Below are positions 16,020 to 17,573 of a stretch of DNA of 64,000 nucleotides, piece by piece. The stretch lies in the NCBI RefSeq assembly GCF_036507355.1, contig NZ_AP027877.1. One strand, given 5' to 3'. The position numbers and the translations under genes were made by a program. Below the pieces are notes generated by a model. It saw only the letters and a list, made by a program, of their open reading frames with translations, searched no databases and had not been told where the DNA came from. The stretch comes from Escherichia coli (GTDB lineage: Bacteria > Pseudomonadota > Gammaproteobacteria > Enterobacterales > Enterobacteriaceae). Numbering within the stretch: the first letter of the stretch is position 1; each line of letters begins with the position of its first letter.

Positions 16020-16075
16020 TCTTTACCAGCACCATTCCCGCAAGGGAATGGTCAGATTGATGACAAAGGCAAAAC

Positions 16076-16175
16076 TGCCTGATGTGCTTCGCTTATCAGG
16101 CCTACATGGTTCCTGCAATGTATTGAATTTGCACGATTTTGTAGGTCGGATAAGGCGTTAACGCCGCATCCGGCA
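16076..16175. repeat. BIME (two inverted REP elements with linker)
   Basis: TGCCTGATGTGCTTCGCTTATCAGGCCTACA and GTAGGTCGGATAAGGCGTTAACGCCGCATCCGGCA flank an AT-rich linker. Confidence 0.75.
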
Positions 16176-16190
16176 TGAATAACGCGCACT

Positions 16191-17573
16191 TTGTCAACAA
16201 TCTGGTCATTTCAGCAAGGGAATGGTGCTTCTCCGCACACTTTGCTTACGGCGACGCTTGCACGTGAAACAGGGGTAAAGTCAGATCTCGACCTGATGTA
16301 TACCGTAGTAACAAGCCCGGATACGCCAAAAGCCAACTTCTGGGGACATATGCCAGAAACGGTAAGCTCAGCAGACGGAACGCAGTTTGAGCGGATGAAA
16401 CTGTGGGCCGAAATGGGGGCAACCAGCGGTGGCGGTTATTCGCTCACTAAAGTGAATATAAATAATGAAAGCTGGCCTGCGCCATATATTACCCAGCGAT
16501 ATTTGCCGGAGCTTATCCCTTGTGAAAGCGCACGATATCCATCATTGGATGAGCTTCAATCTTTATACAACCGCTATCCGAATGGCTCTATCGTCAATGA
16601 GATTGGCTGGCCGGTGAAACAGAATAGCTATGTGTGGTGGACAAATGCAGATTGTCCTGCGGGCGCGAATTCTTGTGAATCATTTGACTTCAACACAGGT
16701 CAACTTGTGACTGTATCTAAAAGCCGCGCCTTCCAGGCGTGCCTGGTGCACCCTCACTCAACGGTTTCTACCGTCACCCTGACGTCAACGGCATTTGACT
16801 CCACCGCTCAGGCGGCGAAAGTGAAGAAGGGCGAGGCAATGCCAGTCACCGTGACGGTGAAAGACAGCGCCGGGAAACCTGTGCCAAATGTGGCGTTTAC
16901 TCTGCGACGTGGTGATGCCTCTCCGCGTAATAGTGGGGCGACGCTATATGGCGATGTGGCGGCTATGGATGATATTACCATCCAGCCATCATCGGGGGCG
17001 GCTACCCTATTGGCGGTTAGTGGGAACGAGATCAGTGGCGTGACGGGGGCAGACGGCACGGCAAACTTTACTGTTCGTCAGGACAATACGCCGGGTTATA
17101 AAATGCCGCTGACGGTAACGCTGGATAAATACCCAACAGTGACTGCAATGATGGACACTATTTTCACCGTATTGACCAGCCCAAATGTATCTTCTGCTCA
17201 CTTCTGGGGGCATATGGCAGACACGGCAGTGGTGAATGGAAAAACATTACATCGACCGATACTGACAACTGAATTACCGTCCGGGGCCAATCCCGTATCC
17301 TCACCGATTATTAACTACGAAAACTGGGCTTCTGCGCATATTACTGATGCCAGCAAATGGGATATCTCGAAGCAGTGTGGAAATATAGAAAATGCACCGA
17401 CATACAATGAGTTAGAGACATTGTATACTGTGTTTAATTCGCTGGGATGGCCAGCTTCGCCAAGTTTCCCTTACTTGTCCTCTCAACGGTGTGGGATGGA
17501 CGAGAGCACTGGCACAGAGGATTGTAGTATCACGTTAGCCAATAAACCTGGTCTGGTTACTTGTTTCCAGTGA
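16191..17573 (+). CDS. Ig-like plus tandem Cys-containing (lectin-like) domain protein; probable 5'-truncated remnant of a larger intimin/invasin-like (RatA-like) adhesin gene
   Basis: 460-codon frame opens right after a stop inside the BIME; only start is TTG at 16191 (first ATG about codon 36); no signal peptide; two ~145-aa repeats each with FWGHM motif and 4 Cys, separated by an Ig-like domain. Confidence 0.5.
   Translation: MSTIWSFQQGNGASPHTLLTATLARETGVKSDLDLMYTVVTSPDTPKANFWGHMPETVSSADGTQFERMKLWAEMGATSGGGYSLTKVNINNESWPAPYITQRYLPELIPCESARYPSLDELQSLYNRYPNGSIVNEIGWPVKQNSYVWWTNADCPAGANSCESFDFNTGQLVTVSKSRAFQACLVHPHSTVSTVTLTSTAFDSTAQAAKVKKGEAMPVTVTVKDSAGKPVPNVAFTLRRGDASPRNSGATLYGDVAAMDDITIQPSSGAATLLAVSGNEISGVTGADGTANFTVRQDNTPGYKMPLTVTLDKYPTVTAMMDTIFTVLTSPNVSSAHFWGHMADTAVVNGKTLHRPILTTELPSGANPVSSPIINYENWASAHITDASKWDISKQCGNIENAPTYNELETLYTVFNSLGWPASPSFPYLSSQRCGMDESTGTEDCSITLANKPGLVTCFQ

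Follow-up and report, generated by a model that had tools for sequence, protein, structure and literature searches.

Introduction

How repetitive extragenic palindromes (REPs) and bacterial interspersed mosaic elements (BIMEs) have spread has been a question since the 1980s, and the current favourite is a domesticated tyrosine transposase (RAYT). The BIME-1 class, also called RIP or RIB, is described as an inverted pair of y-type and z-type REPs around a long L linker, which contains a consensus for integration host factor (IHF) and binds this protein (PMC3333891). According to one review, REPs are devoid of the signatures of miniature inverted-repeat transposable elements (MITEs). Insertion sequences (ISs) of the IS1182 family, in turn, target hairpins and palindromes by their structure (PMC4923244, PMC5678879). 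In this context, we analyzed a 152-bp element that lies downstream of the gene sinI in a 64,000-nucleotide stretch of Escherichia coli DNA (contig NZ_AP027877.1 of assembly GCF_036507355.1), referred to as the window. With a probability of about 80%, positions 16053-16204 represent a MITE with IS1668-like (IS1182-family) termini and a BIME-1/RIP core, which inserted at the foot of a terminator-like hairpin and duplicated that hairpin over 22 bp.

Comparison of sequences reveals an insertion relative to an ancestral empty site, inverted repeats that are shared throughout the family, hairpin duplications of variable length, and ends similar to those of ISs that leave the same footprint. The sequence itself is not new. 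The element is a single extragenic unit that follows a transcription unit at its 3' end, with inverted y- and z-REPs and an L linker, and it is a member of the long-known BIME-1/RIP/RIB family, which goes back to Gilson, Bachellier and Hofnung, to Oppenheim et al. (1993) and to Boccard and Prentki (1993).

An insertion into the hairpin downstream of sinI

The gene sinI (15054-16019; this and all other features are on the plus strand unless stated otherwise) encodes a SinI-family autotransporter-associated protein, as judged from the open reading frame (ORF) call, from homologues and from the annotation of genome A30. A30 is 98.7% identical to the window over 12001-16248 and 100% identical across the feature, and it is annotated in the same way. 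The stop codon of sinI occupies 16017-16019; a hairpin begins 11 nt and the element 33 nt downstream of it. The left copy of this hairpin, ACCATTCCC-GCAA-GGGAATGGT (16031-16052), is intact, with a perfect 9-bp stem and a GCAA loop, and the element stands in the place of the T-run. Beyond the element, the right copy, GTCATTTCA-GCAA-GGGAATGGT (16205-16226), has decayed and agrees with the left copy at 18/22 positions; of its T-run, GCTTCTCC is what erosion has left. These four substitutions together with the eroded T-run indicate that the insertion is old. The 3' part of the hairpin, the 13-nt sequence GCAAGGGAATGGT, is repeated at 16214-16226; a repeat search extends the direct repeat to 18/20 (16033-16052 and 16207-16226), and the comparison with empty sites sets the duplicated unit at 22 bp (16031-16052 and 16205-16226). 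A simple consensus scan of 15900-16500 found no canonical terminator, which agrees with the loss, from both copies of the hairpin, of the T-run seen at the empty sites.

The limits of the element (16053-16204) are given by where homology to other copies ends and by what is missing from orthologous empty sites. It is bounded by the inverted repeats CAGATTGATGACAAAG (16053-16068) and CTTTGTCAACAATCTG (16189-16204), which are 15/16 complementary, and in a repeat search the inverted symmetry of the arms extends to 41 nt at 78%. The left arm (16053-16076) comprises the terminal inverted repeat and a short subterminal spacer; the right arm (16175-16204), recognized from the family consensus and its likeness to IS ends, includes the other terminal repeat. 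The element is non-coding and has no ORF of its own. As RNA, the region 16025-16232 folds into one long hairpin of -97.1 kcal/mol (z = -10.2 against shuffles), and the 152-nt core as DNA folds at -34.5 kcal/mol (z = -5). A preliminary description of this spacer had listed the hairpin, the 13-nt repeat, the 16-bp inverted repeats and two inverted REPs, all of which are present.

Empty sites were located through diverged SinI homologues (84% to ~70% identical) in Escherichia sp. E4208, E. coli HVZ29, a Citrobacter and Salmonella bongori. Their spacers measure 110-122 bp and hold a single hairpin at the homologous position, followed by TTTT(T)CC (GTTTTTCC) and no element. The allele of the window and A30 is 174 bp longer, which corresponds to the 152 bp of the element plus 22 bp for the second hairpin copy. 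Each of the four outgroup alleles is without the element, and their hairpins differ by compensatory changes; the empty state is therefore ancestral, and the state in the window results from insertion. The hairpin of the sinI terminator was the target, as the preliminary description had supposed when it proposed a MITE-like insertion with REP cargo into a former terminator. Among 48 complete E. coli genomes with the sinI-ratA junction no empty allele was found, and all 48 are filled.

Similarly, the interval between a prohibitin-family gene and tkt exists in several states within E. coli. E166 carries a single hairpin, PCN033 has the order hairpin-element-hairpin with 174 additional bp and a 22/22 duplication, and UPEC69 has hairpin-element-hairpin-element-hairpin. 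The hairpin AAGGGCCGCTTTCGCGGCCCTT flanks the element on both sides at this locus. The two element units of the UPEC69 doublet (L134 ~547-895) differ from each other at a few bases.

A dispersed family that duplicates hairpins

A 501-bp query across the feature matches nearly every E. coli genome, and it does so only over query positions 155-305, which correspond to 16054-16204 of the window, that is, to the segment between the inverted repeats. In alignments of genomic copies the similarity drops sharply at the ends of both inverted repeats. Across the genome, these repeats are found again as the termini of a repeat family. Further copies lie between dppA and dppB, gudD and barA, entD and fepA, and ydgA and uidC, besides the prohibitin-tkt interval. 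A query made of the arms alone, without REP sequence, matches a median of 6 places per genome. More than 20 distinct, unlinked loci in E. coli, E. albertii and E. whittamii contain the same 152-bp unit. The family consensus of 152 nt was built from copies chosen by the right-arm pattern, and the left arm is kept across the aligned copies although the selection ignored it. A degenerate form of this pattern was scanned over species-representative genomes; the scan also returned chance matches and unrelated elements, the census across species is incomplete, and all counts of loci refer to the matches listed.

The duplication of a hairpin is a property of the family. Among the matches listed, 10 of 23 independent loci, drawn from the three Escherichia species, have duplicated hairpins that abut the element, compared with 1 of 506 mismatched pairs of left and right flanks that served as control under the same score cut-off. 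At the ten loci the duplicated hairpins are specific to the locus and 18-29 nt long; the flanking copies share identical loops and are therefore direct repeats. Usually a T-run comes after the right copy, and the element comes after the left one. The length of the duplication follows the size of the hairpin, and family-wide the duplicated hairpins range from 17 to 30 bp. In an unbiased 250-kb sample of K-12 we found seven BIME-1-like elements. The one between yfeW and yfeX retains both arms next to a duplicated hairpin of 30 bp; a further four, variously decayed, retain one arm or both, and two are without arms. In all, ~330 kb were sampled free of selection bias.

Some copies show what became of the repeats after duplication. 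At two loci in E. whittamii the hairpin copies have diverged: at L114 (8231-8430) the stems read CCACGG/CCGTGG and CCCCGG/CCGGGG, and both still form hairpins, while at L111 (4771-4963) the stems are the same and the loops differ. Copies that diverge and continue to fold suggest selection to keep both stem-loops. In E. albertii (L020 6934-7527) four units of ~147 bp are arranged head-to-tail, and only the first has kept the left arm.

These observations leave next to no room for the view that the repeats are a coincidental local structure. Palindromes are common in intergenic DNA, but the unit occurs in all Escherichia genomes that were examined, and what is directly repeated is exactly the sequence that is single at the empty sites. 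The end of homology at the inverted repeats, the excess of duplications over mismatched flanks and the z-score of the fold likewise place the repeats beyond chance.

The family may already have names besides BIME-1. The original K-12 annotation listed a repeat called RSA, with 150/151 bp and 6 copies in the table that is quoted in PMC5172473, and the reference list of PMC3751351 also gives it as 'BEE95'. The unit described here measures 151-152 bp, and its length and copy number agree with this listing; on these two values the window element is probably the RSA repeat, a correspondence that should be taken as a lead rather than a test. At the dpp and gud loci the K-12 RefSeq annotation contains no repeat_region features. 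TRIP1 repeats were also considered as a match. These are GC-rich repeats of 146-273 bp at aqpZ-ybjE, putP-ycdN, yohI-yohG and related loci (PMC10888264), and the candidate was rejected on the grounds that loci, size and GC content or composition differ.

Ends shared with IS1182-family insertion sequences

In Photorhabdus the right-arm pattern occurs at no fewer than about 30 sites, where it forms the last 18 bp of a repeated element of 1,582 bp. The ends of this IS read CAGACCGCTGACAAAC... and ...CACTTTGTCAATAATCTG; a perfect inverted copy of the right end was not found in it, and the left end was defined by comparing copies. Its two reading frames score as an IS1182-family transposase (NF033551, 208 and 296 bits) with the Pfam domains DUF772 and DDE_Tnp_1_6, and the copies with matching flanks lie between duplicated hairpins of 17 and 28 bp. 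Relatives include IS1668 of Yersinia as well as full-length ISs from Citrobacter and a draft assembly of E. coli, and the ends of these E. coli, Citrobacter and Yersinia elements are CAGACTGCTGACAAAGTC...GTTCGTCAKCAGTCTG. Among five further IS copies, three have perfect duplicated hairpins of 17-21 bp on both sides and two have a different hairpin abutting each end, a pattern that recombination between copies of the IS would be expected to leave.

When the MITE consensus is compared with these ISs, 13-17 of 18 positions are identical at each end. The left-arm consensus agrees with the E. coli IS end at 15/18 positions, and the right-arm consensus with the Photorhabdus IS end at 17/18 and with the ends from E. 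coli, Citrobacter and Yersinia at 15/18. The asymmetry of the ends is kept as well, the right arm of the MITE resembling the transposase-proximal IS end and the left arm the transposase-distal one. Conserved terminal inverted repeats, a target duplication, dispersed non-coding copies and a related IS with matching ends together identify the element as a MITE.

The preliminary description had spoken of a 'MITE/REPIN-type' insertion. The first half of this label holds; the second, which implies a tyrosine transposase, calls for revision, as the ends and the target duplication point to a DDE transposase of the IS1182 family. A REPIN-type origin would mean that the REP doublet was moved as single-stranded DNA by TnpA_REP (RAYT, of the HUH/Y1 type) and that neither the arms nor the hairpin repeat played a part in this. 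In favour of such an origin, the core consists of two inverted REPs tagged GTAG/CTAC; in vitro, BIME DNA is cut and recombined by the TnpA_REP of E. coli at C|T sites, also at a distance from REPs (PMC3333891), and such dinucleotides occur near both ends of the element (GAGAC|TG and AATC|TG). However, Y1 transposition of the IS200/IS605 type yields neither terminal inverted repeats nor target duplications (PMC3333891); here both are found family-wide, and DDE-type ISs of the IS1182 family share them. The conserved outermost bases, moreover, lie outside the putative C|T sites and yet move with the element. We therefore regard a REPIN-type origin as unlikely.

Recombination between palindromes, whether homologous or illegitimate, or gene conversion or template switching, could in principle distribute such sequences without any transposition, with a likeness to IS ends that arose by convergence. 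REP and BIME regions are known from the literature as recombinogenic, and the UPEC69 doublet and the four-unit array of E. albertii show that recombination between flanking repeats reshapes loci. What makes this account very unlikely is that the flanking hairpins are locus-specific and yet enclose the same sharply bounded 152-bp unit at more than 20 unlinked loci, and that the empty sites contain the hairpin exactly once. Convergence on 15-17 of 18 positions at both ends, with polarity kept, towards ISs that leave the same footprint is very improbable.

Several further observations concern the ISs and their targets. In IS1668-like elements (L145 423-2017, L146, L147-L149, L094 2612-4193) a 12-nt terminal sequence at each end is directly followed by a GC-rich subterminal hairpin, at a place where the MITE has a REP, and the REPs may mimic or have replaced these hairpins. 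Fragments of IS1182-family ISs match in 351 E. coli genomes, nearly all on plasmids and none of them complete; on plasmid pZ1323PEC0008-2 (L136 ~2001-2960) such a fragment adjoins espT, a gene for a type III secretion system effector. Two Yersinia enterocolitica loci with IS1668 (L147 and L149) share the right flank and its hairpin, and their right neighbour is a transketolase gene. The same holds for the MITE copy of E. coli PCN033 (L011), and each element abuts a hairpin at the 3' end of that gene. The transketolase-side hairpins of Yersinia and PCN033 differ in sequence, and this 3' hairpin may be a recurrent hot target. Finally, in several metagenome-assembled genomes from the gut, assigned to Bacilli, Erysipelotrichaceae and Tenericutes (L026-L033, L041-L051, L082-L084, L090 and others), the 18-nt right-arm pattern lies ~150 bases or less, often ~50, from contig ends. 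The pattern seems to mark the end of a further multi-copy IS at which these assemblies break, and such an IS may be distantly related to the IS1182 family and have this end in common.

The REP core and possible regulatory functions

The arms enclose a core in which y-REP, L linker and z-REP follow each other. The y-type REP (16077-16105) is in inverted orientation and ends in ...GGCCTAC, as assigned from sequence, alignment and the nomenclature of PMC3333891. The z-type REP (16141-16174), identified from sequence and family alignment, starts with GTAGG..., so that the two REPs are oppositely oriented with CTAC and GTAG tags. A match to naRNA4 over the z-REP is weak and below threshold. The L linker between the REPs (16106-16140, 35 nt) is conserved in all copies, namely in 37 of 37 occurrences at the Escherichia loci compared. 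In the centre of the element, on the minus strand, lies a predicted IHF site, ATTCAATACATTG (16116-16128), which matches the consensus WATCAANNNNTTR at 12 of 13 positions and is conserved in the family consensus. The other REP and BIME sequences of the window (35954-36067, 56363-56397 and 61020-61085) have neither an L linker nor arms, and the MITE-type element occurs once in its 64 kb.

The linker is also the place of an Rfam match, to the small RNA (sRNA) family RF02751 (ES036/CssrF), on the minus strand at 16098-16140 with 52.4 bits against a gathering score of 37.6. It spans the L linker and the adjoining ends of both REPs, so that what RF02751 models would seem to be part of the BIME-1 repeat and not a unique sRNA gene.

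Together, the conserved IHF-like site, the Rfam match and the very stable RNA fold could be taken to mean that the unit is a selected host module, serving as an IHF site, as a 3'-untranslated element that stabilises or attenuates mRNA, or as a source of ES036/CssrF sRNA. Some loci, such as L114, keep both hairpins through compensatory changes, and RIB/RIP elements are reported in the literature to lie where transcription units end, on their 3' side. Such a role is compatible with an origin by insertion, and it leaves the duplicated target, the IS-like ends and the empty sites unexplained; at the sinI locus, moreover, the right hairpin and its T-run are decayed and the downstream gene is deleted, with no sign of selection. 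As a substitute for insertion, host regulation has only a slim chance of being correct. As a secondary function of an inserted element, it is possible.

A separate deletion removed the start of the ratA-like gene

The gene order around the element is der, a small zinc-ribbon gene, sinH (12818-14998), sinI, the element and the 3' remnant of a ratA-like gene, which is followed by an ORF of 458 amino acids on the minus strand (17642-19018). The remnant was called by program as an ORF at 16191-17573 and is in the same frame as the gene of A30. Its first ~18 codons are read-through of the right arm and the hairpin copy, and it is this read-through that artificially puts the 5' end of the ORF at 16191.

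The preliminary description had suggested that the insertion parted this ORF from its 5' region, a suggestion that the comparison with A30 contradicts. A30 has the identical element, and the start of its ratA-like gene, 85 bp beyond the right end of the composite element, is intact; the truncation is therefore an event separate from the insertion. Window and A30 are collinear up to 16248, from where the window resumes at A30 locus position 11503. A deletion of 5,153 bp with TTA microhomology at its junction (16246-16248), outside the element and ~20 bp to the right of the composite, took the promoter, the start codon and the 5' part of this gene for a giant adhesin. When the 501-bp query that spans the junction was required to be covered to at least 80%, no complete E. 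coli genome in the collection qualified, so the deletion allele is unrepresented there. The copy described here is old and decaying and lies in a virulence-associated islet, where an unrelated deletion has destroyed the adhesin gene downstream.

The flank in which the deletion occurred has a further peculiarity. At 16234-16244, ~30 nt to the right of the element, the native sequence contains CGCACACTTTG, which we compared with 16183-16193; an empty site (L138 ~2505-2515) holds an exact CGCGCACTTTG, an 11-mer of the element's subterminal right arm. In the native flank this type of 11-mer makes up one arm of a further palindrome, CACTTTGCTTA...TAAGCAAAGTG, inside which the 5,153-bp deletion has its breakpoint. 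The sharing of the 11-mer between native flank and right arm could be coincidence, an older remnant of an IS end or a feature of the target.

A model for insertion and the points that weigh against it

As judged from the footprints, the element was most likely moved by a DDE transposase of the IS1182 family whose point of attack is an extruded hairpin. In such a scenario the transposase, supplied in trans, would bind both arms of the element, and an IHF-induced bend at the centre might help one transposase complex to hold both ends, a speculation by analogy. The target palindrome would be recognized as an extruded hairpin or cruciform, the 3' ends of the transposon would attack the 5' feet of the cruciform, and gap repair would then copy the entire palindrome. 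Because the whole palindrome is copied, the length of the duplication would be set by the hairpin, without a fixed stagger. Wan et al. (2017) predicted this course as 'pathway b', in which 3' ends that attack the 5' feet of a cruciform cause the whole stem-loop to be duplicated (PMC5678879), and the footprints of both IS and MITE are the outcome that they predicted.

Several points weigh against this reading. IS1272, the best-studied member of the IS1182 family, deletes its target hairpin and does not duplicate it (PMC4923244). The transposition mechanism is derived from footprints and a published model, and the mobilising enzyme has no demonstrable presence in this host, where only plasmid-borne IS remnants occur. 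In a nucleotide search with the Photorhabdus IS and the IS of the E. coli draft assembly, a complete cognate IS was absent from 5,426 complete E. coli genomes. From this absence it follows that the present copy is probably old and now immobile, and that most E. coli copies are probably fossils. About half of the copies are without a recognisable duplication and some are without a left arm, which we read as decay; another route of spread could fit as well. The conservation of the right arm is partly due to construction, as the right-arm pattern selected the copies of the consensus. Finally, the polymorphism between empty and filled sites within a species could also come from deletion between the direct repeats and is, taken alone, no proof of a recent insertion.

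Implications and comparison with known systems

At least the BIME-1 subclass of BIMEs bears the full signature of a DDE transposon, comprising terminal inverted repeats, target duplication, empty sites and a cognate IS. A wider proposal is that the whole BIME-1/RIP/RIB class, probably including RSA, consists of MITEs that derive from and were spread by IS1668-type elements instead of RAYT, and that this has not been described before. We advance it tentatively, as a claim with somewhat less than an even chance of holding in full. If true, it would explain why BIME-1 elements follow transcription units at the 3' end, why terminators frequently bracket them and why the presence of whole BIME-1s varies from strain to strain. 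It would also provide a natural record of the duplication of whole stem-loops by IS1182-family transposition. A duplication whose length equals that of the target hairpin is an unusual rule, and it gives a directly testable model. Through insertion a single terminator becomes two hairpins, with a structured 3'-untranslated region that has a predicted IHF site between them; these elements thus matter for the interpretation of 3'-end mapping, of sRNA calls such as Rfam ES036 and of intergenic polymorphism in E. coli.

In the literature searched, which did not extend to key papers of the 1990s or to ISfinder and TnPedia, we found neither a link between BIME-1 and IS1182 nor an assignment to an IS1182-type MITE that duplicates whole target hairpins, none of the papers searched names both IS1182 and BIME, and an earlier description of this link remains conceivable. 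Gilson and colleagues reportedly named outer 'A' and 'B' motifs of BIMEs in 1991, and Bachellier and colleagues are said to have reported 'excisions of a whole BIME-1' in 1997. The 2012 study from the ISfinder group does not mention the arms (PMC3333891). The portions of published BIME-1 descriptions that we consulted mention neither outer arms as transposon inverted repeats nor duplicated hairpins. In its other traits the window element agrees with BIME-1/RIP/RIB as described, that is, in the inverted y- and z-REPs, the L linker with its IHF consensus, the extragenic position and the location at the 3' end of a gene.

REPINs, which are associated with RAYT (Bertels and Rainey 2011, Nunvar 2010, Ton-Hoang 2012), are likewise non-coding, multi-copy hairpins of an inverted REP doublet. 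However, neither they nor elements of the IS200/IS605 type have DDE-type terminal inverted repeats or a target duplication, and the window element has both. Correia elements duplicate the dinucleotide TA. As mentioned in PMC3184786, these elements (also NEMIS) of Neisseria resemble the window element in having ~150 bp, terminal inverted repeats and a central IHF site, and they are often co-transcribed with their neighbours. Their sequence is unrelated and contains no REPs. IS1272 and TnSha1 of staphylococci, similar to the element described here, target terminator hairpins by structure (PMC4923244, PMC5678879). IS1272, however, deletes or replaces the stem-loop, whereas the stem-loop in the window is duplicated, an outcome of 'pathway b' that Wan et al. 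did not document. The IS1668 group, which occurs in Yersinia, Photorhabdus, Xenorhabdus, Citrobacter, Serratia and rare plasmid-like contigs of E. coli, has the same ends, the same polarity and the same footprint, in which the insertion abuts a GC-rich hairpin that is duplicated as a whole. Members of this group measure ~1.6 kb and carry a transposase, whereas the window element has 152 bp and none. Since it is non-coding while its relatives encode an IS1182 transposase, the element is best regarded as a derivative or dependant of such ISs rather than an IS in its own right.

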